64,000 nt of DNA. Source: an uncultured Thermoleophilia bacterium. GTDB lineage: Bacteria > Actinomycetota > Thermoleophilia > UBA2241. This document shows, one piece after another, positions 41,013 through 63,988 of this stretch (the first letter of the stretch is position 1; the number at the start of each line of letters is the position of its first letter). The translations under genes were made by a program, and so were the position numbers. The stretch lies in contig CAVQSP010000015.1 in assembly GCA_963715985.1 (NCBI GenBank), positions 1 through 64,000 of the forward strand, in the 5' to 3' direction. The notes under the pieces were generated by a model that saw only the letters and a list, made by a program, of their open reading frames with translations, was not told the DNA's origin and did not search any database.

Positions 41013-41024
41013 GGCGGCGCCTCG

Positions 41025-42397: not shown

Positions 42398-42402
42398 CGG
42401 CG

Positions 42403-42993: not shown

Positions 42994-43003
42994 GCGGGTC
43001 TCC

Positions 43004-44916: not shown

Positions 44917-46109
44917 TCCAAGCCCAGAGCGCGCCGCACGTCGCGCCAGCCGCCGGAGCTGGCGGCGCCGTCGGCCGCTTCGAGTGTGTAGCGGCCGCCC
45001 TCGCGCCGCAGCCAGGGGCGCGGCGCCGGCACGCCCTCGGGCAGCGCCGCCACGGCCAATCCGGCGCGGCGCAGCTCCGCCGCCCGCGCCGGCTCCTCCA
45101 GTCCGCCGGAGAACGACAGGCAGGGCGGCGCGGCCACGGCCGGCACGCCTGCCTCGGCCATGGCGTCCAACAGGCGGTCCAGGGCGAGGGCGAAGCCCGC
45201 GGCGGGGATGTCCCAGTCGAAGCGCTCCAGCAGGCCGTCGTAGCGGCCGCCGGTGGCGAGCGGCAGGCCCACCCCCGGGGCGTAGGCCTCGAAGATCACG
45301 CCGCTGTAGTACGTGAGCGTCGGGTAGAGGCCGAAGTCGAAGGCCACGACGTCCTCGAAGCCGGCCTCCTCCACATGCTCGCGCACCTCGACGAGGTGGC
45401 GGATGGCGTCGTCCATGGCCTGGGTGCTGGCCAGCTTGCGCGCTTGCGCGAGGCCGTCACGCGAGCCGCTGAGCTCGAGCACGCGCCACACCACCTTGAG
45501 GGCGGCCGCGTCCACCTCCGCGTTGCCGGCGATGCTCTCCAGCAGCGGGTAGTCGCGTTCGGCGAGGGCCTCCAGGAATTTGTCCCTGTCCTCGTCGTCG
45601 AGACCGAGGGAGTCCACGAGGGCGCCGTAGAACGACACCGAGCCCAGGGCGATGCGGTAGTCGCGCAGCCCGGCCGCCGTGAGGCAGTCGCAGAGCAGCG
45701 TCACGCACTCGGCGTCGGCCGCAGCCGAGGCCACCCCCAGCAGCTCGGCCCCCGCCTGCACGAACTCGCCGTCCTGGCTGCGCTGGGGCGCCCACGGGCG
45801 GATGGACGGCGCTACGTAGCAGAAGCGCAGCGGCAGCGGCCTGTCGTTGTACCGCGCCGCCGCCAGCCGGGCCACGGGCACCGTCATGTCCGTGCGCGAC
45901 ATGAGCTCGTGCCCCTGCTGGTCGTGCAGGCGGTAGCCGCCGGCGATGGTGTCGTCGTGGGCCGCTTCGAAGGTCTCGGCGAACTCGAGCCAGGGGGTGA
46001 CGACCTCGCCGTAGCCGTAGGCGGCGAACCGCGCCCGCAGAAGGGCCTCCACGGCCCGTTGCTCGCCCGTCTCGGGCGGCACCACGTCGCGCATGCCCTC
46101 AGGGATCAT
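44913..46109 (-). CDS. hisZ: ATP phosphoribosyltransferase regulatory subunit
   Basis: IPEGMRD, RTDMTVPVAR, EFVQAGAEL, YYSG..FE, GGRYD.L. Confidence 0.92.
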   Translation of the reverse strand: MIPEGMRDVVPPETGEQRAVEALLRARFAAYGYGEVVTPWLEFAETFEAAHDDTIAGGYRLHDQQGHELMSRTDMTVPVARLAAARYNDRPLPLRFCYVAPSIRPWAPQRSQDGEFVQAGAELLGVASAAADAECVTLLCDCLTAAGLRDYRIALGSVSFYGALVDSLGLDDEDRDKFLEALAERDYPLLESIAGNAEVDAAALKVVWRVLELSGSRDGLAQARKLASTQAMDDAIRHLVEVREHVEEAGFEDVVAFDFGLYPTLTYYSGVIFEAYAPGVGLPLATGGRYDGLLERFDWDIPAAGFALALDRLLDAMAEAGVPAVAAPPCLSFSGGLEEPARAAELRRAGLAVAALPEGVPAPRPWLRREGGRYTLEAADGAASSGGWRDVRRALGLE

Positions 46110-46140
46110 GGCCACCGGTCTCCCTCTCCTCCCGCCGGTC

Positions 46141-49100
46141 TCAGCCGGCGCCGACGCAGCTCTCGCCGAGCAGCGCCTTGAGCTCCGCGTACAGTCCGGC
46201 CACGGGATCGACACGCAGCGCGTCCCCGACCCGCAGCTTGGCACAATCCTGACCGCGCACCATCTCCAGCACCACGGGCACGCTCCCGGGGAAGTCCGCA
46301 AGGACGCCCTTGAGCTCGTCGAGCACCGAGGGGCGGAGCCTGTCGGCGTCGATGGTCACCGTGAGTGGGCGGTACTCGCTGACGCCGCTGAAGGGCACCA
46401 CCTCGATGGCGATGAGCGTGGTCTCGCTCTCCGACTTGCGTTCCACGCGACCTCTGACCTTGACGATGGAGTCCTCGACGAGCAGGTCCCTGTACTGATC
46501 GTAGGTGGCGGGCCACGCCCTGCACTCCACGCCGCCGTCCACGTCCTCGAGACGGAAGGCGAGCCACACGCCGCCGTTCCTGCTCACCTTCTTCTGCGCG
46601 TTGGCGACGATGCCGCCCGTCCACACCGCGCTGCCGTCCACGGCGTCGTCCAGGGAGCTTGCCGAGACCTCGATCTCCTCGCGCAGCTGCTCGCGCAGGT
46701 CCTGCAGGGGGTGCGCCGAGACGTACAGGCCCAGGGCCTCCTTCTCGCCGCGCAGCAGTGTGGCCTGGTCGAACTCGCGCTGCGGCACCTGCGGCGCCTG
46801 CGCCCCGCTCTCCTCCGCGGCCACGAGGTCGAAGAGGCCGCCCTGCCCCTGCGCCTTGTCCTTGCGGCGGCGCTCGCCGTCGGCCATCGCCGTGGGCAGC
46901 GCCTCCAGCATGCCGCGGCGCGGGTCGCCGCTGCTGTCGAAGGCGCCGGCGCGGATGAGCGCCTCGAGCACGCGCTTGTTGGCCTGCGCCGAGTCCACGC
47001 GCGCGCAGAAGTCGTAGATGGACGTGAAGCGCCCGCCCTCCTCGCGCGCCGCGATGATGGCCTCGATGGCGCCCACGCCGACGCCCTTGACGGCGTTCAT
47101 GCCGAAGCGGATCTTGCCCTCCACCACGGTGAAGCCGACGACGCTCTCGTTGACGTCCGGAGGCAGCACCTCGATGCCCATCTCGTGGCACTGGTTCACG
47201 TAGAACGGCACCTTGTCTTTGGTGTTCATCACGCTGCTGACCAGCGCCGCCATGTACTCCACCGGGTAGTTGGCCTTCAGCCAGGCGGTGCGGTAGCTGA
47301 TCATGGCGTAGCAGGCGGCGTGGCTCTTGTTGAACGAGTAGTCGCCGGTCGCCTCGAAGTTGGCCCAGAGCTTGTGGCTCACGGCGGGCGGCACGCCGCT
47401 GGCCGCGAGCCCCTGCATGAGCGGCTCCTTGAGGGTGGCCATCAGCTTGCGGTCCTTCTTGCTGATGGCCTTGCGCAGGTCGTCCGCCTGGGCCGGCGTG
47501 AAGCCGCCGACCCGGCGGGCGATGGCCATGTACTGCTCCTGGTAGATAGTCACGCCGTGCGTGGGCTCCAGGATGGGGCGCAGGGCCTCGTGGTCGTAGA
47601 CGACCGAGGCCGGGTCCTTCTTGTTGCGCGCGTAGGTGGGGATGTATTGCATCGGCCCCGGGCGGTAGAGCGCCACGATGGCGATGAGGTCCTCGAACTG
47701 CGTGGGGCGCACGTCGCGCATGGCCTCGCGCATGCCCGGGCTCTCGAACTGGAACACGCCGGTGGAGTCGCCGCGCGCCAGCATCTGGTACGTCTTCTCG
47801 TCGTCCAGCGGCAACTGGTCGATCTCGATGCAGACGCCGCGCGTGTGCTCGATGATGTCCAGGGCCGCCTCGATGACGTCCAGGTTGCGCAGCCCGAGGA
47901 AGTCCATCTTGAGCAAGCCGAGCTTGGCGACGTCGTTCATGTCGAACTGCGTGACGAGCTCGGCGTCGCCCTTCTGCTGCAACGGCAGGTACTCGGTGAG
48001 CGGCTTGTCGCTGATCACCACGGCAGCGGCGTGGATGGAGTCGTTGCGGATGAGGCCCTCGAGGCTCATCGCCAGGTCGACGACCTCCTTGACCTCCTCG
48101 TCGGCGTCGTAGGCCTGCTTGAGCTCGCCGCCCGGCAGCATGGCCTGGCTGAACGTGGCCGGCGGGGCCTGCTCGGGGATCATCTTGGCGATCTTGTCGC
48201 CCACGGCGTACGGCTTGCCCATGACGCGCGCCGCGTCGCGCACGGCGGCGCGCGCGGCCATGGTGCCGAAGGTGATGATCTGCGCCACGTGGTCGCGCCC
48301 GTACTTCTCGGCCACGTAGTCGATGACTTCTTCGCGGCGCTCCACGCTGAAGTCCATGTCGATGTCGGGCATGCTCTTGCGCCCCGGGTTGAGGAAGCGC
48401 TCGAAGAGCAGGTCGTACTTGAGGGGGTCGATGTCGGTGATGCCCAGCGCGTAGCTGACGATGGAGCCCGCCGCCGAGCCGCGGCCGGGGCCGACGGCGA
48501 TGCCGTTGTCCTTGGCGAACTTGACGTAGTCCCAGACGATGAGGAAGTAGGCGTCGAACCCCATGTCGCCGATGACGCCGAGCTCGAAGTCGAGGCGCTC
48601 GCGGACCTCCGGCGCCATGTCGGTGCCGTACCGCCGCAGGAGGCCTTTCTCGCAGAGCTGCCGCAGATAGGAGCCCTCGGTGATGCCGTCCGGGACGGGG
48701 TACGACGGCAGCAGGTAGGTGCCGAAGTCCAGGCTGACGTCGCAGCGCGAGGCGATCTCCACCGTGGCCTCGCAGGCCCCCGGATAGTCCTTGAAGCGCT
48801 CGTACATCTCCGCGCCCGACTTGAGGTAGAACTCGTCGCTGCCGTAGCGCATACGGTTCTCGTCCTCGAGGTTGCTCTGCGTCTGGATGCAAAGCAGGGC
48901 GTCGTGCGCGTAGGAGTCCTCGTGGCGCAGGTAATGCACATCGTTGGTGGCCACGGTGCGCAGGCCGGCCGTCTGCGCGAGCTGCCACAGCCTGGGCAGC
49001 AGCTCGCGCTGCTCCGGCAGGCCGGCGTCCTGCAGCTCGACGAAGACGTTCTCAGGGCCGAGCAGGTCCGCGAGGCGGCGGAGCTCGGCCAGGGCGCCCG

Positions 49101-49554
49101 CGTCGTCACCGTCCCTGAGCATCATCGCGATGCGGCCGCTCATGCAGCCGGTGAGCGCGATGAGGCCCTCGCTGTGCTCCGCCAGCAGCTCCCAGTCGGC
49201 ACGCGGCTTGTAGTAGTAGCCCTCGAGGTAGGCGCGGGTGCTGAGCTTGACGAGATTGCGGTAGCCGGTCTGGTCGCGGGCAAGCAGTGTGAGGTGCGCA
49301 TTGCGCTCCTTGACGCCGGCCCGCGAGTGGCGGTCGGTGGCGACGTACAGCTCGAGGCCGATGATGGCTTTGATGCCCTCGTCCTCGGCGGCGCGGTAGA
49401 ACTTCACGGCGCCGCCGAGCGTGCCGTGGTCGGTGAGGGCCACAGCGGGCATGCCGAGTTCCTTGGCTCTGCGCACAAGATCCTTGACTCGGCAGGCGCC
49501 GTCCAGCAGCGAGTACTCGCTGTGTACGTGGAGATGGACGAAATCGGCGGCCAT
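46141..49554 (-). CDS. dnaE: DNA polymerase III alpha subunit
   Basis: FVHLHVHSEYSLLDG (PHP), [34 protein letters not shown]-terminal OB fold. Confidence 0.98.
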   Translation of the reverse strand: MAADFVHLHVHSEYSLLDGACRVKDLVRRAKELGMPAVALTDHGTLGGAVKFYRAAEDEGIKAIIGLELYVATDRHSRAGVKERNAHLTLLARDQTGYRNLVKLSTRAYLEGYYYKPRADWELLAEHSEGLIALTGCMSGRIAMMLRDGDDAGALAELRRLADLLGPENVFVELQDAGLPEQRELLPRLWQLAQTAGLRTVATNDVHYLRHEDSYAHDALLCIQTQSNLEDENRMRYGSDEFYLKSGAEMYERFKDYPGACEATVEIASRCDVSLDFGTYLLPSYPVPDGITEGSYLRQLCEKGLLRRYGTDMAPEVRERLDFELGVIGDMGFDAYFLIVWDYVKFAKDNGIAVGPGRGSAAGSIVSYALGITDIDPLKYDLLFERFLNPGRKSMPDIDMDFSVERREEVIDYVAEKYGRDHVAQIITFGTMAARAAVRDAARVMGKPYAVGDKIAKMIPEQAPPATFSQAMLPGGELKQAYDADEEVKEVVDLAMSLEGLIRNDSIHAAAVVISDKPLTEYLPLQQKGDAELVTQFDMNDVAKLGLLKMDFLGLRNLDVIEAALDIIEHTRGVCIEIDQLPLDDEKTYQMLARGDSTGVFQFESPGMREAMRDVRPTQFEDLIAIVALYRPGPMQYIPTYARNKKDPASVVYDHEALRPILEPTHGVTIYQEQYMAIARRVGGFTPAQADDLRKAISKKDRKLMATLKEPLMQGLAASGVPPAVSHKLWANFEATGDYSFNKSHAACYAMISYRTAWLKANYPVEYMAALVSSVMNTKDKVPFYVNQCHEMGIEVLPPDVNESVVGFTVVEGKIRFGMNAVKGVGVGAIEAIIAAREEGGRFTSIYDFCARVDSAQANKRVLEALIRAGAFDSSGDPRRGMLEALPTAMADGERRRKDKAQGQGGLFDLVAAEESGAQAPQVPQREFDQATLLRGEKEALGLYVSAHPLQDLREQLREEIEVSASSLDDAVDGSAVWTGGIVANAQKKVSRNGGVWLAFRLEDVDGGVECRAWPATYDQYRDLLVEDSIVKVRGRVERKSESETTLIAIEVVPFSGVSEYRPLTVTIDADRLRPSVLDELKGVLADFPGSVPVVLEMVRGQDCAKLRVGDALRVDPVAGLYAELKALLGESCVGAG

Positions 49555-49565
49555 GGAGGTCTCCG

Positions 49566-49574
49566 ATTCTAGCA
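49566..49574 (-). promoter_or_regulatory. Extended -10 promoter (TGcTAGAAT) of dnaE-his
   Basis: Minus strand TGC-TAGAAT, 11 nt before the ATG. Confidence 0.5.
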
Positions 49575-49620
49575 CGGCGCATGAGGCCGCCGGCGGTACT
49601 GCTGCCGCGCAACCGCGCCC

Positions 49621-51526
49621 TCAGCCGGTCCGGACCAGCCTCGCCGCGCCGCGCTTGATGCCGCCCCAAACGAAGGGCGCGTAGAGCGCGATGCGCTCCC
49701 CGAGACCGTTGGGGCAGAGCACGCCGAGCATCTCCGCGAAGAACCGTTCACCGTAGCTTCGCGGCAGACCGATGCGCCCGTAGATCTCGTCGACCAGGGC
49801 CTCCATCTCCCCCTCTTCGTAGCCCGTTGGATTGTGGAACCCGACGTAGGTGGCCAGGTCCTCCTCGGGATCCGCCCTCAGCTCGATGCCGTAGGCCTCA
49901 GGATGATGGTACGACGTCCGAGAAGAGGTCGAGGTAGAAGCGGCAGAGCGCGACCTCGCCGCGGATCTTGGCCAGGTTGGCTCTGATGAAGGCCACGGTC
50001 TTGTCGATATCGGCCTCCGTCTCCCCGGGGATGCCGGCCATGAGGAACACATTCACGATGATGCCCGCGGCGTGGAAGTTGTCGATGACCTTGACCACGT
50101 CGCGCAGATCGATCCCCTTGTGCGCGCGGTCCAGGACCTCCTGCGAACCGGACTCCAGCCCGAAGTGCAGGGCGAAGAAGCCGGCCTTGCGGACCTTGTG
50201 GCAGAACTCGATGTCCGTGAACGCCTTCTCCGCACGGACGAAGGAGTAGAACCTGGCCCCGCTGCCGGCCTCGAGGAGGGCGTCGGCCAGCGTCTCCAGC
50301 TGCCGTATCGAGAGATTGGTGTCGCAGATGTGGAAGTAGGAGGGATGATGGCGTTGCGTCAGCTTCTCGACGTCGCGCATGAAGGCGTCCGCCGGCCGCA
50401 CGCAGTACTGGCTCTCGTCCGAGAGGATCTTCGGGAAGTGGCAGAAGCGGCAGCGAGCCCAGTCGCAGCCGGAGGACGTGCTCAGTGTGAGGATCGGATT
50501 GGGCCGCGGGTCGGTGAAGACGGGCGTCGCGGCCTGGGCGATGGTGAAGTCCCTCTCGGGGTTACGGCGCATCGATCCGTCAGCCGTCCGCCAGACGAGG
50601 CTCGGCACGTCGCCGAGGCTGGGCGAGGCAGTCGTCAGCTCGTCGTGAAGCTTTGCGACGGCTTCCTCCCCGGCGCCGGTCACCATGCTGTCGTAGAGTG
50701 GTGACACGGCGCTGTCTCCCGCCAGCGTCTCACGCAACGTGCTGACGGTCGCGCCGCCCAGCGTGATGTGCAGATCCGGCCGCTGCTCGCGTATGACTCG
50801 CGCGAGGGTGAACGCGGGGATGATCTGCGCTTCGTGTGTGACGGAGATGCCGGCAAGCGCCGCGCCGGCCGGGATCGACGGCACGATCCTCCTCCTGTAG
50901 TAGTCGAGAAACGGGTTGACCGTGGCGTCCCCGCTGGCGGCGAGGACCGCCCTGGACCGCTTCGTGCCGCACTCCATCTCGAGCCCGCCGAGAACGCCGA
51001 ACTTGCTCGGCCAGAACGACGCGAAGCACAGGTCCACTGCGACCTGCAGCCGCGCCAGCGCGAGCAGGAACCTGTTCTTCGAGAGCCCCATGAAGCGCTC
51101 GCGCAGGAGGGCCTCGGATCCGTGCAGCAGGCGCACGACGGCTTCGCGCCGCCCGAGAAGCCCGGCCAGCGCCCGGGCCGGCTCATCAGAGCGGAACCCG
51201 AGCTCCTCCGGGATCCGGGCCAGAGCGATCGAGTCGGCCAGGTAGGCGACCTGATCCGGGACGAGCTCGCCCCGCCTCCCGGCGAGCTCGTCCATGGCCC
51301 GCTCCAGCGTCCCGATGCCCGCAAGGTGCTGGTAGAGCTCGTTGTCCAACACCCGCTGCAGGACCGGGTAGCCATGCTCGAGCAGGTACCCGGTCAGCTG
51401 CGGGACCGCCAGCGTGTTGAAGACGTAGAAATGCTCCGGGGAGAACAGGACGATCTCCCCCACTGCCTTCCTCTGCGTGCCCGGTCGCAGGGCAGGCGAC
51501 TCGGCAAGCGTGTCGAGAGGAGTCAT
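49621..51526 (-). CDS. B12-binding-domain radical SAM protein (one indel near 49912)
   Basis: GISV...Q...TLAR.IR...PDLHITLGG cobalamin-domain pattern, CDWARCRFC cluster motif, FGLESGSQEVL, GIPGET; C-terminus continues in the 49621..50052 frame (YHHPEAYGIE...). Confidence 0.85.
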
Positions 51527-51599
51527 CTGGACACTACCCCTTTCGTTGAGCGGAGGCCGGGGCATCAGCCGGAGCCGAACGCGCTCGCCCTGACGAATC

Positions 51600-51627
51600 A
51601 TCGTAGCCAAGATAGTGGCGCGGTCAA
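51600..51627 (-). promoter_or_regulatory. Sigma70-type promoter of the radical SAM gene
   Basis: TTGACC-N16-TACGAT on the minus strand. Confidence 0.55.
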
Positions 51628-51838
51628 AGGCCCGAGCTGACAGCGCTCGACTCGTCGCACGAGCTCGCCGACACGGCAGGCGCCGCCCGGCCGCGAGTAC
51701 TCGCACCGCACGTGCAGACGGACGATATCGGCGGCCGTGGAGGTCTTCGATTCAAGCACAGTGCGTGCCATCACCCACCGCTGGCAGGCGACGCCTTAGC
51801 GCAGCCTGCGGCACGGCTCCCGCGCGTCTCTGGACTGC

Positions 51839-53281
51839 TCAGTGACCCGTCAGCCCGAGCTTCAGGTCGTTGACGTTCGTGCCGGTCGGGCCGGTGTACA
51901 CACGGTCGCCGGCGGCCTCGAGCGCCGTGCCGGAGGCGTGGGCGGCGATGGCGGCCGAAGGGTCCACCTCGGCGCCCGCAAGGGCGGCGGCGCTGAGGTC
52001 GTCGACCAGGCCGCCTGCGGCGTGACCGGGGCCGTCGATGCCGTCGGAGTCGAGGCACAGGACGCACGCCGGAGAGGAGCCGGGCGGTCTGTGCCCGAGC
52101 GCCTCGGCGCCCGCGAGGGCGCCGTCCTGGCTCGGGCCACCGCCGCCGGAGAGGCCCGTGCCCGACCGCAGCGCGGTGGTGGCCTCTCCCCCGGCGACAA
52201 GCGCTGTACCTGGTCCGGCTTCGGCGAGCCGCTCCGCGAACCAACGCCCGGCCTCGGCGCTCTCGCCCTCCAGGTCGAGGCGCAGTAGCGTGGCCGCGTA
52301 GCCACGGTCCTCCGCCGCCCGTACCGCCGCCTCGCACATCATCCGTGCGTCGGCGACCACGAAGGAGGTGACGCCGGCGAGGCTGTGGCAGCTCTCCTCG
52401 GCCGGGTCGGCGTGCCGCAGGTGAGCGGCCACGCGCGTCGGCAGGTGGCCCCACAGGTCCCAGCGGTCGCAGACGGCCTGGGCGTCCGCAAAGGTCGAAG
52501 TATCCGGCACCGTGAGGTCGGTGACGGCGTCGAGCGGGTCGCCGACCACGTCGGACACCGTCAGGTTGAGCACCTCGCAGCCGGCGGTCCGCGCCAGACG
52601 CCCGCCCTTCAAGCGCGAGAGATGCTTGCGCACCTGGTTCACGGCGACGATGTCGGCGCCGCAGGCCAGCAGCAGGCGATTGGCGGCGATCTTGTCGGAG
52701 AGCGTCAGGCCTTCGGCGGGCGCCACGACCAAGGCCGAGCTGCCGCCGGTGACGAGGGCGATGAGGAGGTCGTGGGGGGCGGCCGCCGCGGCGATCTCCA
52801 GGAGCCGCTGGCCGCCGGCCAGGCTGCTCACGTCGGGCACCGGGTGGGAGGCTTCGAGGACCTCGATGTGCGTCAGCTGCACGCCCTGCCCGCGCTTGAC
52901 CACCACCGCGCCTGCCGCGATGCGGTCGCCGAGCAGCTCGTCGAGGACGCCGGCCATGCCGATCGTGGCCTTGCCGGCGCCCACGACGAACACGCGACGT
53001 CCGCGAAGGTCGAACCGACGTGCTTCGTCACCCGGCGGGGTGACAACGAGGTCGTCACCTTCGAGGTGCACCATCCGCCGCAGGTTGGCCGCCGGGTCCA
53101 CGGCCGCAAGCGCGGTCGTGGCCACGGCGAGCGCGTCCGCGCGCAGCTCCGCGCGCCCGTGGCTGGTCAGCTGCGCATAGTTGACGAAGCGGGTTCGTGC
53201 CGCGGCCGCGCCGAGCGTCGGCTCCGCATCACCGGGCACGGCCCGGCCGGGGCCCGGGGCGTCTGCCGGGCCGCCGCTCAC
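51839..53281 (-). CDS. Class II glycerate kinase-like protein (DUF4147 + MOFRL), divergent
   Basis: GAGKA, HPVPD, GGSSAL, VRKHLSRLKGGRLA, SDVVGD, GGE, DGIDG, TGPTGTNVND; GTGA overlap with the enolase-like stop. Confidence 0.9.
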   Translation of the reverse strand: MSGGPADAPGPGRAVPGDAEPTLGAAAARTRFVNYAQLTSHGRAELRADALAVATTALAAVDPAANLRRMVHLEGDDLVVTPPGDEARRFDLRGRRVFVVGAGKATIGMAGVLDELLGDRIAAGAVVVKRGQGVQLTHIEVLEASHPVPDVSSLAGGQRLLEIAAAAAPHDLLIALVTGGSSALVVAPAEGLTLSDKIAANRLLLACGADIVAVNQVRKHLSRLKGGRLARTAGCEVLNLTVSDVVGDPLDAVTDLTVPDTSTFADAQAVCDRWDLWGHLPTRVAAHLRHADPAEESCHSLAGVTSFVVADARMMCEAAVRAAEDRGYAATLLRLDLEGESAEAGRWFAERLAEAGPGTALVAGGEATTALRSGTGLSGGGGPSQDGALAGAEALGHRPPGSSPACVLCLDSDGIDGPGHAAGGLVDDLSAAALAGAEVDPSAAIAAHASGTALEAAGDRVYTGPTGTNVNDLKLGLTGH

Positions 53282-54568
53282 CGCGCCAACGCCGTCGGCC
53301 GGCGCCAGTCGCGCCCCGCGTACACCGCCTCGAACCCGAGCCACTCCTCGATCTGGAAGAGCCGGTTGTACTTGGCGGTGCGCTCGCCGCGCACCGGCGA
53401 GCCCGTCTTGATCTGACCCGCGTTCAGCGCCACGACGAGGTCGGCGATGATGGGGTCCTCGGTCTCGCCGGAGCGCTCGCTCACGCACACGCCGTAGCCA
53501 TTGCGGAACGCCGTCTCGGCGGCCGTGAACGCCTCCGTGAGCGTCCCGATCTGGTTGACCTTCCAGAGGATCGCGTTGGCGGCGCCGAGCTCCACACCGC
53601 GCCGCACCAAGTCCGGGTTCGTCACGAAGAGATCGTCGCCGATGAGCTGCACCCCGGCCGCGCCAAGACGCCGCGTGATCTCCACCCAGCCGTCCCAATC
53701 GTCCTCGGCCAGCGGGTCCTCGATGGAGACGATGCCGAAGTCGCGGACGAGCTCCTCATAGAACGCGATCAGCTCGTCCGTGGTGTAGTCAGTCCCGGCA
53801 ACGGTGTACACCCGCCGCTCCGCATCCCACAGATGAGTCGCGGCGCAGTCCAGTGCGTACACCATGTCGTTCGCATACCCAGCGGCCGCGACGCCCTCGT
53901 GCAGCACCTCCAGAGCCTCGCGAACGTCCACGATGGGCGTGGCGAAGCCGCCCTCGTCGCCGGTGTTGGCGGCGAGCTTGCCGTAGCGGGCGACGACGAT
54001 CTCCATGAGCGCCATGTGGCACTCGCTGGCCATCCGCATCGCCTCGCTGAAGGTGGCGGCGCCCACCGGCATGCAGATGAACTCCTGGAAGTCGAGGTCG
54101 TTGGAGGTGAGCTTGCCGCCGTTGATGAGATTGACGAACGGCACCGGCAGCACGCGCGCGTCGGCGCGCAGGTAGCGGAACAGCGGGAGGCCCGCGGCCG
54201 CGGCGGCCGCGCGGGCCGCGGCCAGCGACACGCCCAGCAGCGCGTTGGCGCCCAGACGGCTCTTGTCGGGCGTGCCGTCCAGTTCGCACAGAAAGCGGTC
54301 CAGACCCACCTGGTCGGCGGCGTCGCAGCCCAGCATGGCCGGACCGATGACGTCGGCCACGTTGGCGATGGCCTTGGCGACGCCCTTGCCGCGGTACGCG
54401 GCCTCCCCGTCGCGCAGCTCGACGGCCTCGGCGCTGCCGGTAGAGCGGCCGGCGGGCACGTCGGCCCTGCCCAGGTGCCCGCCGGCGATCACGTCCACCT
54501 GCACGGTCGGGTAGCCGCGGCAGTCGAGGATCATGCGGGCGCGGACGTCGGTGATCGGTGGTGCTCAT
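53278..54568 (-). CDS. Enolase-family protein, divergent paralog (one indel after codon 4)
   Basis: RG.PTV, STG..EA.ELRD, LGANA, QEF, GDEGGF, SIEDP, GDDLFVTN, KVNQIGT, RSGETED, QIKTG, ERTAKYN; several canonical residues replaced (see findings). Confidence 0.9.
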
Positions 54569-54612
54569 GCCTCTCGCCTTTCGTCGTGCGGGCTTGACTC
54601 GGCTCGAGGTGA

Positions 54613-54642
54613 AGTCTAGAAGGTCGGGTGGGCAGGCGCCAA
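54613..54642 (-). promoter_or_regulatory. Candidate promoter of the enolase-like/kinase pair
   Basis: TTGGCG-N18-TAGACT on the minus strand upstream of the ATG at 54568. Confidence 0.4.
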
Positions 54643-54689
54643 GGTGGTACGGCGGCCGCCGCAGCCACGCCGGCCCGGCTGTCCACCCC

Positions 54690-55255
54690 TCACATCACGA
54701 CGAGCACGCCGGCGTCGAGCCCTGCTCTGCCGGTTCCCGGCGAGGTCGACCGCGTCGACGCTTCCAGGTCGTAGCGGCCACGGGGCAGCGTACAGGTAAC
54801 GGGTAACGCACCTCCGCGTTGGTGCGCTGTAGCGGGACGTTGAGCTTCATCTCGAGCCTCGCCCCCCGGAGGATCCTCACGGACCCCCACCACTTCGGGG
54901 AGATCGCGTCGTCCGCCCTCAGGCGGAGAGCTCACCCGCCCGCCGCTCGCGACACGCGCGTCGGCCGGCGCCCGGGTCACGGGGCGGGTTTCGTCGTTGC
55001 GCACCGTGGGCTTCTTTGCCGCCTCGGCGTAGCCGTCGAGGTCAGTGGACCGGAAGTCGTACGCGCTGCTGCCGGACGAGCCCACGCGGAAGGGCGCGGG
55101 GTAGACGGTCCAGTCGGCCGCACCGGCCGCCCGGAACTCAGTCGTGGCCACGCCGGAGAACAGGTCCCTCGCGCCGAGCGTGACCGTCACCTCCGTCCTG
55201 TTCCACCCGTAGACGTTGGCCGCCGGCTCAGACGGCCGCGCAGGACCGATGCCAT
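54690..55255 (-). pseudogene. Frameshifted remnant of a secreted protein's Ig-like/beta-sandwich C-terminal domains
   Basis: GWNRTEVTVTLGARDLFSGVATTEFR..DWTVY..PFRV..YDFRSTD, then CTLPRGRY and VDAVDLAGNRQS in other frames; no start or signal peptide. Confidence 0.55.
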
Positions 55256-55329
55256 AGTGGATCCCCTCCCCAGAAGGCGGGGAGGCCCGCGGTGGCTGCC
55301 TTCGCCGGCCGCGGCGCTCCCCACCTCGG

Positions 55330-55590
55330 GAGCGTAGTCCCGTGGCGCCGCAGACACAACGACGGCCGCAGGGCGCGCTCGGCCTCCCGTGCCCTGCCGC
55401 GCAGGCTGCACCCCCAGCCCACGATCTCGCGGCCGTGGCAACCGATGATCGCCACCAGATGACCCCAGCCGTCCTCCTCGCAGCAGACGTGCCCGAGAGC
55501 CATGGCCCAGTGCTCGTTGCTGCGAGCGGAGACGGACCGCCGTCCCTGGGCCGACGGACGCGGCGTAGCGCCAGCTTCGGGCCCGGCACT
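55330..55590 (-). mobile_element. IS3-family transposase (integrase core) remnant
   Basis: RSNEHWAMALGHVCCEEDGWGHLVAIIGCHGREIVGW..SLRGRAREAERAL resembles the IS3 pattern N.RW..D.T....GW.YL..VID...REIVG with both Asp positions lost; no terminal inverted repeats found. Confidence 0.7.
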
Positions 55591-55726
55591 CTGATGCCCC
55601 TCGGCTCCCCTGCAGGGGGACGGGACCGGCCTCAGGGGGAGAGGGCGCGTCGTCACACCGGGCGGCGGTGCCGGCTGGTGCGGTGCGCCGCCGCACGAGC
55701 GGTGGGACGAAGTGGACGAGCCCGTA

Positions 55727-56382
55727 CTACTGCAGCTTCCTCGGCGCCGCGATGGTCTTGTCGAACACCTCATGGGCCCGCGCGGCATACGCATCGCCAG
55801 TTTCGAGGTACCCCGCCGACGCCTCCAGTGCCGGCGGGTCATGGCTCAGCGACCTCGTACGACCAGAACACATCGTGCAGAGCCATCTGTTGGAGGAGCC
55901 AGAACGCTTCGTCGGCCCAATGGTTGAAGCGAAACGAGGAGCTCCCTGTAGCGCCGGCGATCGCTCGCGGAGGCGAAGTACCGCGACGCTTTGGCGCTCA
56001 GTATATGCAGATACTTCTCGGTAGCCGTGAACCAAGACTCGGGCTGGCCCTCGAAATCGGTCCAGACCCGACGCGCGTAGTCCTCCCCTGCCAGCAAGTC
56101 TTCCCTCTTGTCGGGGTCGCCGATCATGGGTGCCAGGGTCGCGGCGAGGCTGGACGACTGGAGCTCGAATTCGTCGTACGTGTGGGCGTAACGGCCGAAC
56201 GTCTCCTGCATCCCGGTCAGCATTTGCTTGTACTCGGCCCGATACTTCGCTCTGACGTGAGCGGTGGCCGCGCCCGGCGCACACAGCAGCAAGCAGAAGG
56301 CCAGCAGCACCAGGATGGTGGACAGACGCCACCGGGGGGTCCTCAAGCGTCCGGCCGAACCACGTGCCGTTTCCATGCTCAT
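55727..56382 (-). CDS. Hypothetical secreted, mostly helical protein (frameshifted near 55930-55850)
   Basis: Signal peptide RWRLSTILVLLAFCLLLCAPGAATA|HV; GGAGG RBS; C-terminus in the 55727 frame; good upstream promoter. Confidence 0.55.
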
Positions 56383-56418
56383 GAGGCCTCCCCGCCGACG
56401 CTCTTCTCTTGCACTTGC

Positions 56419-56447
56419 AGTGTCCCCCTCGTGCCGAGGCCTGTCAA
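56419..56447 (-). promoter_or_regulatory. Sigma70-type promoter
   Basis: TTGACA-N17-GACACT upstream of the secreted-protein gene. Confidence 0.6.
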
Positions 56448-56456
56448 CGAGCCGCA

Positions 56457-56516
56457 TTGCCTCACGAAGAACGTACTCGAACACGATTCGTTGCCTCAGA
56501 TCAGAAGGCACTCGAA
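56457..56516. repeat. Imperfect tandem repeat with a 34-35 bp period
   Basis: ttgcctca-cgaagaacgtactcgaa versus ttgcctcagatcagaaggcactcgaa. Confidence 0.5.
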
Positions 56517-56601
56517 GGGCGCCGAACTCCAAGCTCGGCATGCGAGCAAGAACGAGGTCGGATGCGGTGGCCCTGGAGCGACTCGACCCCCCAATGACGC
56601 C

Positions 56602-56619
56602 GTCCGTTGACCAACGGAC
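56602..56619. promoter_or_regulatory. Operator-like inverted repeat
   Basis: GTCCGTTG-ac-CAACGGAC, immediately before the ATG at 56622. Confidence 0.45.
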
Positions 56620-56769
56620 CCATGAGGAAGCTCGCCGCGCTGCTCGCCCCCGTCTACGCCTTCGCGCCGGGCGTGTTCGTCGAGGAGGGCGAGGTCGGCA
56701 TCTACCTCTACGAGCTCGATGTCCACGCGGTCGGGGGCACGCTGGACGAGCCCCAGGCGTGCCCGCCGG

Positions 56770-56868
56770 TCAGGAAGCGGGCGCCCAGTAACAGCGCTCG
56801 GGCGACTCGATGCGGCCGTCCTTCTTCCGGTCGGGCATGACCTCGAGCACCTTGTCCGCGTCGCTCAT
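56770..56868 (-). pseudogene. Internally deleted small winged-helix-type protein
   Basis: MSDADKVLEVM..KKDGRIESPERCYWAP behind a GGAGGG RBS; both ends resemble ~60-aa proteins ending K.G.I.SPKRCYW, but the middle helix-turn-helix is missing. Confidence 0.45.
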
Positions 56869-56964
56869 CTCGTCCCTCCCTGTGGTCCGCGCGCGACCGC
56901 CGTCGCGGCAGGCGTCACGTCTCGTCGTCGCCGGCCGGCATCGCCGGCCCGCCGCCGGCCTCAC

Positions 56965-58539
56965 TCACTTCTGCTGGCTGCGCACCATCCCGTACTCGAT
57001 GGAGTCGACGAGCGCCTCCCAGCTGGCCTCGATGATGTTCTCGCTCACGCCGATGCTGCCCCACACGTCCTCGCCGTCGCTGGCGTCGAGGAGAACGCGA
57101 GTCACGGCACCTGTGCCCTTGGTCTCATCGAGGATGCGCACCTTGTAGTTGACCAGCTCGATGTCGCTGAGGTGCGGGTACTTCTGCGTGATCGCCTGGC
57201 GCAGCGCGCTGTCCAGGGCGTTCACCGGGCCGTTGCCCTCGGCCGTGCTGATGACGCGCTCGCCGCCCACGTGCACCTTGATGGTGGCCTCCACCACGGC
57301 CTTGCCGTCCTCGCGCTTCTCGACGATGACGCGGAAGCTCTCCAGGCGGAACAGTGGCTCGTGCGGCGAGAGCTCGTCGCGCAGCAGCAGGTCGAAGCTC
57401 GCGTCGGCGGCCTCGTAGTGGTAGCCGCGGTGCTCCTGGTCCTTGAGGTGCTTGAGCACGGCCGCCACCTTCTCGTCCTCGCCCTCCACGCTCAGGCCGA
57501 GGTCGCGGGCGCGACGCAACACCGTGGCCTTGCCCGAGAGCTCCGAGACGAGGATGCGCTGCTCGTTGCCCACGGCGGCCGGGTCCACGTGCTCGAAGGT
57601 CTGGGGCGCGTGCTCCACGGCCGCCACGTGCATGCCGCCTTTGTGCGCGAAGGCGGCCTTGCCCACGTACGGCTGGTGTGTGGCGATCGAGATGTTGCAG
57701 ATATCCGATACGAAGTGTGCGGTCTCCGCGAGCCTGCTCAGCTGCTCGTCGCTGACCACGTCCAGGCCCATCTTGAGCTTGAGGGCCGGGATGATGCTCA
57801 CCAGGTTGGCGTTGCCGCAGCGCTCACCGTAGCCGTTCATGGTGCCCTGCACCTGCAGGGCGCCGCGGTCCACGCCCACGAGACTGTTGGCCACGGCGCA
57901 GTCGCTGTCGTTGTGGACGTGCACGCCCACCGGCACCGGGACTGCCGCCACTACCTCACCGACGACGTCGGCGAGGAACGGCGGCAGCGAGGCCCCGTTG
58001 GTGTCGCACAGGCAGACGGTGCCGGCTCCCGCCTCGGCAGCCGTGAGCGCGCACTTGAGCGCGTAGGCCGCGTCGTCGCGCCAGGCGTCGAAGAAGTGCT
58101 CGGCGTCGTACACCACCTGCTTGCCCTGCGCCACGAGGAACGCCACCGAGTCGGCGATCATGCGCAGGTTCTCCTCGCGGCTCACGCGCAGGACCTTGGT
58201 GAGGTGCAGCCCCCACGTCTTGCCGACGATGGTGACGGTGTCCGTTGACGCCGCGGCGAGCACACGCAGGCCCTCGTCGGCAGCGGCGGTCACACCCTTG
58301 CGGCGCGTCATGCCGAAGGCCACCAGACGCGCCGTCACCAGCTTCTCCCGCTCCATGCGGCGGAAGAACTCGATCTCCTTGGGGTTGGACGAGGGGAAGC
58401 CGCCCTCGATGAGGTGGATGCCCAGCTCGTCGAGCTTGAGGGCGATGCGGACCTTCTCGTCCACCGAGACGGACATGCCCTCTTGCTGCATGCCGTCGCG
58501 GAGCGTGGTGTCGTAGAGCTGCACGTGCTGCCCGTTCAT
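56965..58539 (-). CDS. cimA: Citramalate synthase
   Basis: YDTTLRDG.Q.EG, VGKTW.LH, YDAEHFFD, LCDTNG, NGYGERCGNANL, FAHKGGMH, SELSGK. Confidence 0.93.
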   Translation of the reverse strand: MNGQHVQLYDTTLRDGMQQEGMSVSVDEKVRIALKLDELGIHLIEGGFPSSNPKEIEFFRRMEREKLVTARLVAFGMTRRKGVTAAADEGLRVLAAASTDTVTIVGKTWGLHLTKVLRVSREENLRMIADSVAFLVAQGKQVVYDAEHFFDAWRDDAAYALKCALTAAEAGAGTVCLCDTNGASLPPFLADVVGEVVAAVPVPVGVHVHNDSDCAVANSLVGVDRGALQVQGTMNGYGERCGNANLVSIIPALKLKMGLDVVSDEQLSRLAETAHFVSDICNISIATHQPYVGKAAFAHKGGMHVAAVEHAPQTFEHVDPAAVGNEQRILVSELSGKATVLRRARDLGLSVEGEDEKVAAVLKHLKDQEHRGYHYEAADASFDLLLRDELSPHEPLFRLESFRVIVEKREDGKAVVEATIKVHVGGERVISTAEGNGPVNALDSALRQAITQKYPHLSDIELVNYKVRILDETKGTGAVTRVLLDASDGEDVWGSIGVSENIIEASWEALVDSIEYGMVRSQQK

Positions 58540-59462
58540 GAGGTGTGGGCGTGCTCCATGAAGTGACCGAACTGCTCGTCGCGCCCCTCCACGATGGCCT
58601 TAAAACGCTCCTGCATATGCCGCGTGATCGGACCCGGCTCACCGATGATGTGGTCGTCCACCTCACGGATGGGCACGACTTCGGCGGCCGTGCCGGTGTA
58701 GAAGAGCTCGTCGGCGATCACGAGGTCGCTGCGCGTGATGCTCTGCTCACGCAGCTCGATGCCCTCGGCCGCGGCGATCTGCATGATGATGTCGCGGGTG
58801 ATGCCTTCGAGCACGCCGTCGCTGGGCGGCGGCGTGTAGAGCACACCGTTGCGGATCACGAAGATGTTCTCGCCGGAGCCCTCGGCCACGTGACCGTGCT
58901 CGGTGAGCATGATGGCCTCGTCGTAGCCGGCGTTCAGCACCTCGATCTTGGCGAGGATGCTGTTGAGGTACTGGCCCGTGGCCTTGGCGGCGCGGGCCAG
59001 CGCCGTGTGGTCCAGCGACTGGATGCTGGACACCTTGGCGCGCACGCCGTGGAGGATGCCCTCCTCGCCGAGGTACGTGCCCCACGGCCACGCCGCGACG
59101 ATCACGTCCACCGGCGCGTTCATCGGGAACAGGCCCATCTCGCCGTAGCCGCGGAACACCAGCGGGCGGATGTACGCGGAGTCGAGGCTGTTGGACGAGA
59201 GCACCTCGAAGGTGGCGTCGTACAACTGCTCCACCGTGTACGGCACCGGCATGTAGTACAGCTTGGCCGAGCGCACGAGGCGCTTGAGGTGCTCGGTGAG
59301 GCGCAGCACGGCCGGCCCCTTGGGCGTCTTGTAGGCGCGGATGCCCTCGAAGACCCCGGACCCGTAGTGCAGGGCATGGGTGAGCACGTGCACTTTGGCC
59401 TCATGCCAGGGCACGAGCACCCCGTTCATCCAGATCGTGTCCATCTCGGGGATGGGGGCCAT
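58536..59462 (-). CDS. ilvE: Branched-chain amino acid aminotransferase
   Basis: HALHYGSGVFEGIRAY, YIRP, AKATGQYLNS, EGSGENIF, LEGITR, TGTAAEV. Confidence 0.96.
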   Translation of the reverse strand: MAPIPEMDTIWMNGVLVPWHEAKVHVLTHALHYGSGVFEGIRAYKTPKGPAVLRLTEHLKRLVRSAKLYYMPVPYTVEQLYDATFEVLSSNSLDSAYIRPLVFRGYGEMGLFPMNAPVDVIVAAWPWGTYLGEEGILHGVRAKVSSIQSLDHTALARAAKATGQYLNSILAKIEVLNAGYDEAIMLTEHGHVAEGSGENIFVIRNGVLYTPPPSDGVLEGITRDIIMQIAAAEGIELREQSITRSDLVIADELFYTGTAAEVVPIREVDDHIIGEPGPITRHMQERFKAIVEGRDEQFGHFMEHAHTS

Positions 59463-59521
59463 AGGTCCTCCTCGCTGCAGGTCAGCCGTCCGCCGGGGCG
59501 GCAAGAATGGCGTCTGTCATG

Positions 59522-60604
59522 TCACACGCGCTCGGCCACGAGGTCGCCGACCTCGGACGTCGAGTAGCCCATCTGGCCGGAGGCCATGCCCTTCATCTTG
59601 GTGCCCGTGACCTCGGTCACGGCGCGCTCGACATCCTCTGCCGCCTTGCTCTCGCCGAGGGTGTCGAGCATCATCGCGCCGGCCACGATGGCCGCCACGG
59701 GGTTGATCACACCCAGGCCGGTGTACTTGGGCGCCGAACCGCCGATGGGTTCGAACATGCTGACACCCTCGGGGTTGATGTTGCCGCCGGCCGCGACGCC
59801 CATCCCGCCCTGGGTGATCGCGCCCAGATCGGTGATGATGTCGCCGAACATGTTGCCGGTCACCAGGACGTCGAACCACTCCGGGCTCTTGACCATCCAC
59901 ATGCAGGTGGCGTCCACGTGGTAGTACTCGCGCTTGACGTCCGGGTACTCCTCTTCGCCGATCTCGTTGAAGCGGCGGTTCCAGAGGTCGTAGACGTAGG
60001 TCAGGACGTTGGTCTTGCCCACCAGTCCGAGGGTGTTGTCCGCGCCGAGGCCGCGCGCCTTCTTGCCGTGCTTGCGCGCGTACTCGAACGCCCAGCGCAG
60101 ACAGCGGTCGACCTGGGCGCGGCTGTACAGCATGTTCTGCACAGCGACTTCATGCGGCGTGTCCTTCATCATGATGCCGCCGCCGCCGGCGTACATGTCG
60201 CCGGAGTTCTCGCGCACCACCACGTAGTCGATGTCCTTCGGGCCCTTGTCCTTCAGCGGGGTCTCGACGCCGGGGTAGAGACGCACGGGACGCAGGTTGA
60301 TGTACTGGTCCAGCTCGAAGCGCAGGCGGAGCAGGAGGCCCTTCTCCAGGATGCCGGGCTCGACGTCGGGGTGCCCCACGGCGCCCAGGTAGATCGAGTC
60401 GAATCCTTTGAGCTCGTCGACGGCCGTAGCCGGCAGGATCTCGCCGGTGCGCAGGTAGCGCTCGCCGCCGAAGTCGTAGTACGCCAGGTCGAGCGTGAAC
60501 TGGTACTTGGCGGCTGCCGCCTGCAGGGCTTTCAACCCTTCAGCCACCACCTCTGGCCCCGTGCCGTCGCCCGGCAGCACCGCGATCTTGTACGTCCTCC
60601 CCAT
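59522..60604 (-). CDS. leuB: 3-isopropylmalate dehydrogenase
   Basis: LPGDGTGPEV, NLRP, VVREN, NMFGDIITD, FEPIGGSAP. Confidence 0.93.
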   Translation of the reverse strand: MGRTYKIAVLPGDGTGPEVVAEGLKALQAAAAKYQFTLDLAYYDFGGERYLRTGEILPATAVDELKGFDSIYLGAVGHPDVEPGILEKGLLLRLRFELDQYINLRPVRLYPGVETPLKDKGPKDIDYVVVRENSGDMYAGGGGIMMKDTPHEVAVQNMLYSRAQVDRCLRWAFEYARKHGKKARGLGADNTLGLVGKTNVLTYVYDLWNRRFNEIGEEEYPDVKREYYHVDATCMWMVKSPEWFDVLVTGNMFGDIITDLGAITQGGMGVAAGGNINPEGVSMFEPIGGSAPKYTGLGVINPVAAIVAGAMMLDTLGESKAAEDVERAVTEVTGTKMKGMASGQMGYSTSEVGDLVAERV

Positions 60605-60654
60605 GGTCCCTCTCTCCGCTGATGAATGGTCTTTGTCCGGCGCAGCGGCGCTGT

Positions 60655-61158
60655 TCACGCGCCCTCCCCGGCCACGCGCGACTTCACGTACGGCAGCAGG
60701 CCGCCGCGGTCGATGAGCTCCTGCATGAACGGCGGGAACGCCTCGGCCTCGTAGGTCCTGCCCTTGGTCAGGTTCTCCACCGTGCCGGCGGCCAGGTCCA
60801 CGCGCAGCAGGTCGCCCGACTCGGCGTCGACCGCCGCCACGGGGCACACCACGATCGGCAGCCCGGTGTTGATGGCGTTGCGATAGAAGATGCGCGCGAA
60901 CGACGCCGCCAGGACAACGCTCACACCGGAGTGCTTGAGCGCCACCGGGGCGTGCTCGCGCGAGCTGCCGCAGCCGAAGTTCTCCAGAGCGACGACGATG
61001 TCGCCGGGCTGAACCCGGTCGACGAAGCCGGCGTCGATGTCCTCCATCGCGTGCCTGGCCAGCTCGTCCGGGTCGTTGGTGTTCAGGTAGCGGGCCGGGA
61101 TGATGACGTCGGTGTCGACGTCCCGGCCGTACTTGTGGACGGTGCCTTCGAAGATCAT
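60655..61158 (-). CDS. leuD: 3-isopropylmalate dehydratase small subunit
   Basis: [33 protein letters not shown]. Confidence 0.95.
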
Positions 61159-62452
61159 CGCGACCCTCCGGTGACGGCGCCGACTGCTTCGGGCGTGGCC
61201 ACGTGGCCGGCCAGCGCGGACGCGGCGGCCACGTACGGGCTCGCCAGGTAGACCTCGGCCCCGGGATGGCCCATGCGGCCGACGAAGTTGCGGTTGGTGG
61301 TGGACACGGCCCTCTCGCCGTCGGCCAGCACGCCCATGTGCCCACCCAGGCAGGCGCCGCAGGTGGGCGTGCTGAAGGCGCAGCCGGCTTCGATGAGGGT
61401 CTGCATGGTGCCGTCGGCGATGGCGTCCAGGCACACCTGCTGCGTGCCCGGCAGGATGATGCAGCGCACGTCCGGGTGCACCTTCTTGCCGCGCAGGATG
61501 GAGGCCGCCTGACGCAGGTCTTCCAGACGGCCGTTGGTGCAGCTGCCGATGACGACCTGGTCGATGGTGATGTCGCCCAGATCGGCGGCAGCGGCGGTGT
61601 TGCTGGGCAGATGCGGCTTGCTGACGGTGGGCGGCACGGCCGCGGCGTCGATCTCGATGACCTGCGCGTACTGCGCGTCGCGGTCGCTGGCGAACACCTG
61701 GCCGGCAGTGCGGGCACGGCTGCCCTCCGGCCGGCTCTGCAGGTACTGCGTGGTCTTCTCGTCGAAGCCCACGATGCCGCTCTTGCCGCCGGCCTCGATG
61801 GCCATGTTGCACATGGTGAAGCGCTCGTCCATGGACAGCGCCTCGATGGCCGCACCGGTGAACTCCATGGCCTGGTACAGGGCGCCGTCGACGCCGATCA
61901 GGCCGATGGTGTGCAGCATCAGGTCCTTGCCGGTGACCCAGGGCTGCGGGCGGCCCGAGTACACGAACTTGATGCTCTCGGGCACGCGCAGCCACACGTG
62001 GCCCCAGGCCATGGCGGCGGCGAAGTCGGTGCTGCCCACGCCGGAGCTGAAGGCGGCCACGGCGCCGTAGGTGCAGGTGTGGCTGTCGGCGCCGATCACG
62101 ACGTCGCCCGGCGCCACCATGCCGGTGTCGGGCAGCAGCACGTGCTCGATGCCCATGCGCCCGACCTCGAAGTAGTTGACGATCTCGTGCTTGTGGGCGA
62201 AGTCGCGCATCTTCGCGGCCTGGCCCGCCGCCTTGATGTCCTTGTTGGGCGCGAAGTGGTCGGGCACCAGGGCGATGCGCGCCGGGTCCCAGACCTCGGT
62301 GAACCCGGCCTTCTCGAACTCCGCGATGGCCAGGGGCGCGGTGATGTCGTTGGCCAGCGCGAGGTCGATCTTCGCCTCGATGATGTCCCCCGCGCTCACA
62401 GCGTCCCGGCCGGCGGCTCGCGCCAGGATCTTCTCAGTTATCGTCGAACCCA

Positions 62453-62453
<1 letters not shown>
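61155..62453 (-). CDS. leuC: 3-isopropylmalate dehydratase large subunit
   Basis: DH, GADSHTCT, IGSCTNGR, PTCGACLG, STTNRNF.GR. Confidence 0.95.

Positions 62454-63988
<1,535 letters not shown>

Follow-up and report, generated by a model that had tools for sequence, protein, structure and literature searches.

What does an enolase do when a glutamate and a leucine stand where its active site should carry two histidines? The question is raised by a 64,000-nucleotide stretch of DNA from an uncultured Thermoleophilia bacterium (contig CAVQSP010000015.1, positions 1 to 64,000, G+C about 70%; hereafter the window), which encodes an enolase with these two replacements (the variant enolase) directly followed, on the same strand, by a gene for a glycerate-2-kinase-type protein. 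On balance, and with modest confidence, we favour the answer that the variant is an accessory enolase-family lyase of a cross-phylum subfamily, working as a two-gene unit with the kinase and feeding glycerate or a close analogue into phosphoenolpyruvate (PEP). The two genes are as follows.

53278..54534, minus strand: variant enolase open reading frame (ORF), 418 amino acids counted from the first in-frame ATG; the coordinates take in the stop codon.
51839..53281, minus strand: glycerate-2-kinase-type gene of about 480 amino acids, with the Pfam domains DUF4147 (2.2e-66) and MOFRL (2e-21).

Judged by its domain matches and its structural model, the ORF at 53278-54534 is a complete two-domain enolase and a member of the enolase family. 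It matches Pfam Enolase_N (PF03952; 158.7 bits, 1.1e-46) and Enolase_C (PF00113; 349.7 bits, 1.7e-104), and it scores 520.7 bits against the NCBIfam model TIGR01060 ('eno'), for which the cut-off is 300. The nearest solved structure is that of Methanocaldococcus jannaschii MJ0232 (2pa6; 5.5e-140). An AlphaFold2 model made from an input of 32 family members reached a predicted local distance difference test score (pLDDT) of 91.2 and a predicted template modelling score (pTM) of 0.91, and when it was compared with 2pa6 in Foldseek the two agreed with a template modelling (TM) score of 0.95, a root-mean-square deviation of 1.1 Å and 56% identity.

The active-site residues of the variant were checked by alignment to the solved enolases 2pa6 and 1iyx and to the canonical enolase of the same genome, while the yeast numbers used here were assigned through the motifs rather than read from a direct yeast alignment. 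Kept in the variant are E151 (QEF, yeast Glu168), E194 (GDEGG, Glu211), K325 (KVNQIG, Lys345), R354/S355 (RS, Arg374/Ser375) and K376 (QIKTG, Lys396), together with the metal ligands D229 (LDC, Asp246), E272 (IEDP, Glu295), D300 (GDD, Asp320) and S31, the last of which we take to be yeast Ser39, a ligand of the second metal. The position of His373 is occupied by Glu353 and that of His159 by Leu142, and replacements were also found at three other sites.

53476..53478, minus strand: codon of Glu353, which replaces yeast His373 (VSERSGETED vs canonical VSHRSGETED).
54109..54111, minus strand: codon of Leu142, which replaces yeast His159 (GGKLTS vs canonical GGKHAG).
54445..54447, minus strand: codon of Arg30, which replaces yeast Ala38 (AGRSTG vs SGASTG) and adjoins Ser31.
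54520..54522, minus strand: codon of Cys5, which turns DSRG into DCRG (Ser13 to Cys).
53833..53835, minus strand: codon of His234, which replaces yeast Glu251 (AASEF to AATHL).

An earlier note on this DNA had listed Glu168, Glu211, Asp246, Glu295, Asp320, Lys345, the RS pair and Lys396 as retained, and His159 to Leu, His373 to Glu, Ala38 to Arg, DSRG to DCRG and ASEF to ATHL as replaced; the alignments confirmed each of these. Its further claim that the machinery for C2 proton abstraction is preserved agrees with the retention of Lys345, the metal ligands and Lys396, to which the acid Glu211 can be added, so that this machinery appears to be in place.

What is known of other enolases suggests some tolerance of changes at the two histidines. 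His159 is a residue of the mobile loop and touches the phosphate. An H373N enolase reportedly retains part of its activity, and one study, by its title, reports significant activity of an H159A enolase. We take His367 of the S. elongatus enzyme to be the equivalent of yeast His373. In the structure of S. elongatus enolase with PEP, His367 and Glu168 only hold a water 3.5 Å from C3 (PMC8996150). The histidine there does no more than help Glu168 with this water, a task that a carboxylate could plausibly perform as well.

The replacements are conserved across a whole family. Among the 120 database proteins returned as homologues (62-97% identity to the variant enolase), all 120 have SERSGETED, with Glu at 373, and all 113 with a readable motif have DCRG; position 38 in G-x-STG is Arg in 100 and Lys in 3 of 103 readable homologues, and position 159 is Leu in 102 and His in 18 of the 120. 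A scan of metagenomes by a DNA pattern for S-E-R-S-G-E-T-E-D-P yielded 80 loci of 34-75% G+C, in which position 251 is His in 56, Ser in 11 and unreadable in 13. We also compared 146 variant sequences with 70 canonical ones, the latter mostly from Actinomycetota and a subset of the matches listed (49-57% identical to the variant; those checked had His373). Twelve positions are at least 85% fixed and differ between the two sets, and to five of them we assign the presumed yeast numbers S13C, E20Q, E22D, A38R and H373E. Position 38 is Arg in 95% of the variant sequences vs Ala in 100% of the canonical ones, and position 13 is Cys in 97% vs Ser in 100%.

The ratio of nonsynonymous to synonymous substitution (dN/dS, Nei-Gojobori) between the variant and its orthologues is 0.12, 0.18, 0.23 and 0.22 in the genomes G015, G019, G020 and G022, respectively, with dS saturated at the larger distances; the canonical enolase gives 0.14 (G015) and 0.16 (G022) in the same genome pairs. 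The variant enolase family is under purifying selection and is not decaying. The earlier note had preferred a lyase subfamily to a decaying gene, and its two main elements stand: the subfamily is distinct, with substitutions that are conserved rather than scattered, and its dN/dS of 0.12-0.23 is like that of the canonical enolase of the same genomes. What found no support is the role after the manner of PhpH, an enzyme of phosphinothricin synthesis, to which we return below.

The kinase is the second pillar of the proposed function. Its GTG start overlaps the TGA stop of the enolase gene (GTGA), and from its predicted domains and its solved relatives, 1x3l (PH0495; 1.1e-72) and 2b8n ('glycerate kinase, putative'; 1.6e-54), the partner fits a class II (MOFRL) glycerate 2-kinase. 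It stays below two NCBIfam equivalog cut-offs (NF041176, 158.3 bits vs 550; NF040791, 99.1 vs 670), both of which look lineage-specific, judged by the model names alone. In all 6 related genomes in which the contig extends far enough, the kinase gene follows the variant enolase, in two of them with a GntR gene in between. Of the 80 metagenome loci, 72 have a same-strand DUF4147/MOFRL ORF downstream of the enolase motif (71 of the 73 that have at least 500 nucleotides after the motif). The gene of the window shows the marks of this subfamily: the SERSGETEDP, DCRG and G-R/K-STG motifs, and a DUF4147/MOFRL gene that follows at once in the same orientation. Class II MOFRL glycerate kinases make 2-phosphoglycerate (2-PG), which is next taken by enolase (PMC2063504).

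The same two families also occur in a single polypeptide. A natural fusion of 908 amino acids, P0227, has the order DUF4147-MOFRL-Enolase, and fused kinase-enolase ORFs of 919-972 codons are found in three genomes of the same genus as the window (L252, G004:C10; L253, G018:C12; L254, G010:C1). The enolase part of these fused MOFRL-enolase-like ORFs is 43-44% identical to the variant. Here GDEGG has become PDIGG or PDVGG, with loss of Glu211, and SGETED has become SSDTND; position 373 is Leu and His159 is kept. The variant, in contrast, is encoded by a separate gene and keeps Glu211. Judged from these residues, the fused sister branch cannot be an ordinary 2-PG dehydratase.

The variant enolase is an accessory paralogue and not the housekeeping glycolytic enolase. 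A canonical eno with both histidines is located on contig C11 of the same genome, beside a MazG-like ORF, and scores higher, and a second enolase match was present in 8 of 8 variant-bearing genomes examined. Distribution is patchy: the variant was found in 4 of 24 genomes of the same genus, and a phylum-wide sample of 400 other genomes contained it three times, always in one family of the same class. In a quick, unrooted IQ-TREE tree of 64 rows, two of them with long branches, a split with 99% support in the SH-like approximate likelihood ratio test (SH-aLRT) separates the bacterial canonical enolases, including the same-genome copies, from a group that contains the variant family, which means that the variant did not arise by recent duplication of the eno of its host. 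The family itself (26 rows, support 92) is grouped with representatives whose best solved match is 2pa6, and solely from that match do we call these the archaeal/eukaryal type. Among protein representatives at 50% clustering the variant family nearly vanishes, being represented by the fragment P0126 and the divergent P0125.

Other unusual enolases appeared in the same comparison. In the group P0143, P0157, P0173, P0181, P0189, P0202 and P0221, Ala (or Gly) occupies the position of His373; in P0181 and P0202 this Ala/Gly373 enolase domain is fused to an APH-type phosphotransferase domain, and the unfused members nest among the bacterial canonical enolases in a clade of their own with 99% support. 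P0153, P0144, P0140, P0158 and P0152 join a canonical-looking enolase to a phosphoglycerate kinase, phosphoglucose isomerase, guanylate kinase, RpiB or MerR domain, and may be true fusions or gene-calling artefacts.

For the two-gene unit, the reaction that we favour would run as follows. The DUF4147/MOFRL kinase would phosphorylate the 2-hydroxyl of D-glycerate or of a very close 3-substituted analogue, and the resulting 2-phospho acid would be bound through two metal ions (held by Asp229, Glu272, Asp300 and Ser31) and through Arg354/Ser355. Lys325 would take the C2 proton, and the C3 substituent would be expelled with the help of Glu194 and Glu151 in an enolase-type anti-elimination that yields PEP. 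Glu353 may assume the hydrogen bond to the water or leaving group that His373 normally provides, and Arg30, on the lid loop, may assume the phosphate contact and so make His159 dispensable; an arginine at the phosphate would explain why position 159 is free to vary within the family. The unit would plug into differing catabolic operons, with glycerate or hydroxypyruvate as their end point, and so give them a private exit to PEP. The sequence features, their conservation, purifying selection, paralogy, the coupling to the kinase and the fusion in relatives are observed; which substrate is used, what Arg30 and Glu353 do and which way the flux runs are inferred.

That context was surveyed by a census of neighbours over the 80 metagenome loci, in which 30 clusters, picked from the 45 most widespread, were annotated. 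Regulators and transporters are frequent (GntR 25, IclR 11, ABC ATPase 10, TRAP DctM/P/Q 10/9/9), and the enzymes include D-2-hydroxyacid dehydrogenase (12, with a median position just after the kinase), LarA-type racemase (8), short-chain dehydrogenase/reductase (SDR; 5), class-III aminotransferase (4), amine oxidase (4) and galactarate/altronate dehydratase (3). As predicted from these families, the contexts of the pair are catabolic; most of them can lead to hydroxypyruvate, tartronate semialdehyde or glycerate, and most point to the ordinary chemistry from glycerate through 2-PG to PEP. In other Thermoleophilia the pair occurs with GntR/FCD regulators, class-III aminotransferases, FAD amine oxidases, PotD-like ABC importers and D-2-hydroxyacid dehydrogenase. 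Rhodanese and DoxX/MauE genes lie near the pair at two loci (L115, L116). A sulfolactate/sulfite role was considered and rejected, as no sulfite-handling family was found among the 30 annotated clusters.

In the window itself the pair is set between biosynthetic and replication genes, with two additional elements beside it.

40212-49575, minus strand: hisF, a second His_biosynth gene (presumably hisA), a GATase gene (presumably hisH), hisZ and dnaE.
49898-51706, minus strand: B12-binding/radical-SAM methyltransferase-type ORF of 602 codons, between the kinase gene and dnaE; its best NCBIfam family is PhpK.
54600-56965: about 2.4 kb separating the variant enolase from cimA, in which the coding signal jumps frames and G+C is lower in part.
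56965-63988, minus strand: cimA, ilvE, leuB, two aconitase-family subunits (presumably leuD and leuC) and leuA.

The region at 54600-56965 contains a fragment of an OmpL47-type beta-barrel domain (33.8 bits vs a cut-off of 40) and a small ORF at 55846-56541, the translation of which resembles a secreted protein with a hydrophobic N-terminal stretch. In G015 the syntenic locus runs cimA, variant eno, kinase, dnaE; there the kinase abuts dnaE, the radical-SAM gene is absent, and the matches to enolase and cimA are only about 0.25 kb apart. By this order, neither the radical-SAM gene nor the 2.4 kb upstream of the enolase belongs to the unit; both are local insertions. The radical-SAM/B12 gene was accordingly ruled out as a third partner, being absent from the G015 locus and not a recurrent neighbour elsewhere.

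Several observations weigh against the reading that we favour. The cell already has a canonical enolase, yet keeps a second one with a rebuilt and rigidly conserved pocket. The fused branch has lost Glu211, and the assumption of ordinary 2-PG chemistry for the variant branch is therefore weakened. In Actinomycetota, the contexts with an aminotransferase, an amine oxidase and PotD-like genes have no obvious glycerate product. Elsewhere in the genome there is a second MOFRL gene, which shares 55-62% identity with the partner and has no enolase beside it. The start codon of the copy in the window is out of frame in the assembly, so this copy may be N-terminally truncated or not made. Finally, the activity of the family members is a prediction from sequence only.

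The second MOFRL gene (L257, G000:C17:7138-8558) is itself split between frames 1 and 3 near 8061. Close to it are a partial Iso_dh ORF, an MR/MLE-type enolase-superfamily gene and a PucR regulator. The apparent truncation of several ORFs at this locus suggests indel errors in the assembly.

The strongest competitor keeps the logic of phosphorylation followed by elimination but applies it to a substrate other than glycerate, namely a 2-hydroxy acid with another C3 substituent or an added group (for example a 3-amino, 3-sulfo, 3-carboxy or C4 acid), with PEP or an analogue as the product; Glu353, His234 and Arg30 would then act as specificity determinants. We regard it as possible, though we doubt it. 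The replacements are fixed throughout the family and sit where the pocket faces the leaving group and the phosphate, and the Actinomycetota contexts are of an amine type (class-III aminotransferase, amine oxidase, PotD-like ABC transporter, Orn/DAP decarboxylase). The loss of Glu211 from the fused sister branch is what would be expected if the leaving group needs no acid, and the fusions of an APH-type kinase with an Ala/Gly373 enolase domain (P0181 and P0202) are further examples of a kinase joined to a variant enolase. There is also room in the family for such a reaction: every enolase characterised so far belongs to a single sequence cluster, and 27% of the sequence space of the family is unexplored (PMC8996150). 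However, the commonest enzyme neighbours (2-hydroxyacid dehydrogenase, LarA-type racemase and sugar-acid dehydratase, along with a TRAP carboxylate importer) best fit glycerate or hydroxypyruvate, no sulfite-, ammonia- or phosphonate-specific family is among the 30 annotated neighbour clusters, and the variant branch has kept Glu211 and still scores 520 bits with TIGR01060. A bolder form of the same idea, in which the kinase-coupled Glu373/Arg38/His251 variant would expel a C3 amino, sulfo or carboxy group to give PEP, as an unrecognised enolase reaction class, and a second activity of this kind would belong to the fused branch that lacks Glu211, is offered tentatively and seems rather unlikely to us.

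A quite different explanation is that the copy in this genome is inactive or dying. It concerns the start of the gene.

54535..54568, minus strand: displaced N-terminus, with an ATG at 54568 and the Shine-Dalgarno-like sequence AGGCGAGAGG just upstream.

From the ATG at 54568, four codons (MSTT) are followed by one extra base and then by ten codons (APPITDVRAR) in frame with the ORF. The last seven of these, ITDVRAR, correspond to the N-terminus of the orthologues, which start in frame with MSTTITDV or MSTTITEV. At the DNA level the window has ACCGATC where the orthologues in G015 and G019 have ACC-ATC and ACG-ATC, which places the extra base after codon 4; read on from the ATG at 54568, the frame encodes no enolase and stops after 258 codons. 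The feature given in the earlier note, 53278..54568, must be corrected in this respect: the enolase body is present, but the end at 54568 is an ATG out of frame, and the ORF reaches only to 54534. Were the one-base insertion real, it would cut the enolase frame off from its ribosome-binding site and ATG: the sole Shine-Dalgarno-like sequence is that of the ATG at 54568, and the next in-frame ATG costs 11 residues, including part of the first strand. However, the rest of the ORF is intact with a dN/dS of 0.12 against G015, and frames also shift in the second MOFRL gene (C17) and repeatedly in 54600-56965, which suggests assembly indel errors. Because other genes of the assembly are likewise split between frames, an assembly indel is likely behind the extra base, and we consider a dying copy improbable. 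Public contigs from four wetland runs gave no coverage of 54555-54568; one that broke off at 54540 came from a relative with an MTTITDV start in frame.

Another explanation leaves the kinase aside and sees in the variant a spare 2-PG enolase that resists a blocker of the canonical enzyme, such as fluoride or a natural phosphonate inhibitor. The changed residues presumably line the inhibitor-binding pocket, as such resistance would have it. However, the near-obligate pairing or fusion with the kinase would be left unexplained, and the annotated neighbours include neither fluoride genes nor resistance genes; we think this very unlikely.

Least credible of all is a carboxyphosphonoenolpyruvate synthase in a phosphonate or phosphinate pathway, the PhpH-like role that the earlier note had raised: PhpH is an enolase homologue recruited away from glycolysis into phosphinate clusters (PMC4748306), and a radical-SAM gene with PhpK P-methyltransferase as its best NCBIfam family lies 1.5 kb downstream, yet that gene scores 93.6 bits vs a cut-off of 600, is absent from the syntenic G015 locus and is not a recurrent neighbour, the PEP mutase family (PF13714) has no match in the genome (88.8% complete), the window holds no other php-type or phosphonate genes, and the recurrent neighbours of the pair are catabolic. 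PhpH sits among phosphonate biosynthesis genes, and it is by context, not by sequence, that the variant is set apart from it.

Compared with canonical enolase (EC 4.2.1.11; 2pa6), then, the variant shares the two-domain fold, the metal ligands, Lys345, Glu211, Glu168, Arg374/Ser375 and Lys396, but differs by H373E, H159L, A38R, S13C and E251H and at 7 further family-specific positions, and also in its patchy distribution, its non-housekeeping status and its genetic tie to a kinase. The reading that we favour, entry of glycerate or a close analogue into PEP, has its nearest parallels in the lower branch of the non-phosphorylative Entner-Doudoroff pathway, the serine cycle and the tartrate (Ttu) and glucarate (Gar) routes, for which the same order of glycerate 2-kinase and then enolase is expected. 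In the described glycerate routes (TtuD/TtuE, GarK) the second step is usually carried out by the housekeeping enolase, whereas here it would fall to a dedicated, remodelled enolase that is apparently co-transcribed or fused with the kinase. The neighbours of the variant include hydroxypyruvate-reductase-type and sugar-acid dehydratase genes, and its partner is of the DUF4147/MOFRL class II kinase family, whose members make 2-PG (PMC2063504). The fused MOFRL-enolase-like proteins (P0227 and those of G004, G010 and G018) combine the same two families. In a search of full-text literature, which did not extend to subscription journals, we found no description or characterised member of the variant subfamily; in databases its homologues carry automatic names only, enolase or 'phosphopyruvate hydratase'.

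Enolases are commonly assumed to share a single function and an active site that does not vary. In the variant family, a large cross-phylum branch replaces a histidine supposed to be essential, can dispense with another and is hard-wired to a kinase, and selection on this branch is as strong as on the housekeeping enolase. If 2-PG dehydration has been retained, the branch would be a natural experiment on which enolase residues are needed, and would give catabolic operons a private lower-glycolysis exit. If it has been lost, many genome annotations and metabolic models would be wrong at this gene, and the enolase family would have gained a new reaction. Should the reaction class acting on a substrate other than glycerate prove true, it would represent a new route of nitrogen or sulfur release, or one by which an unusual acid is fed straight into central metabolism.

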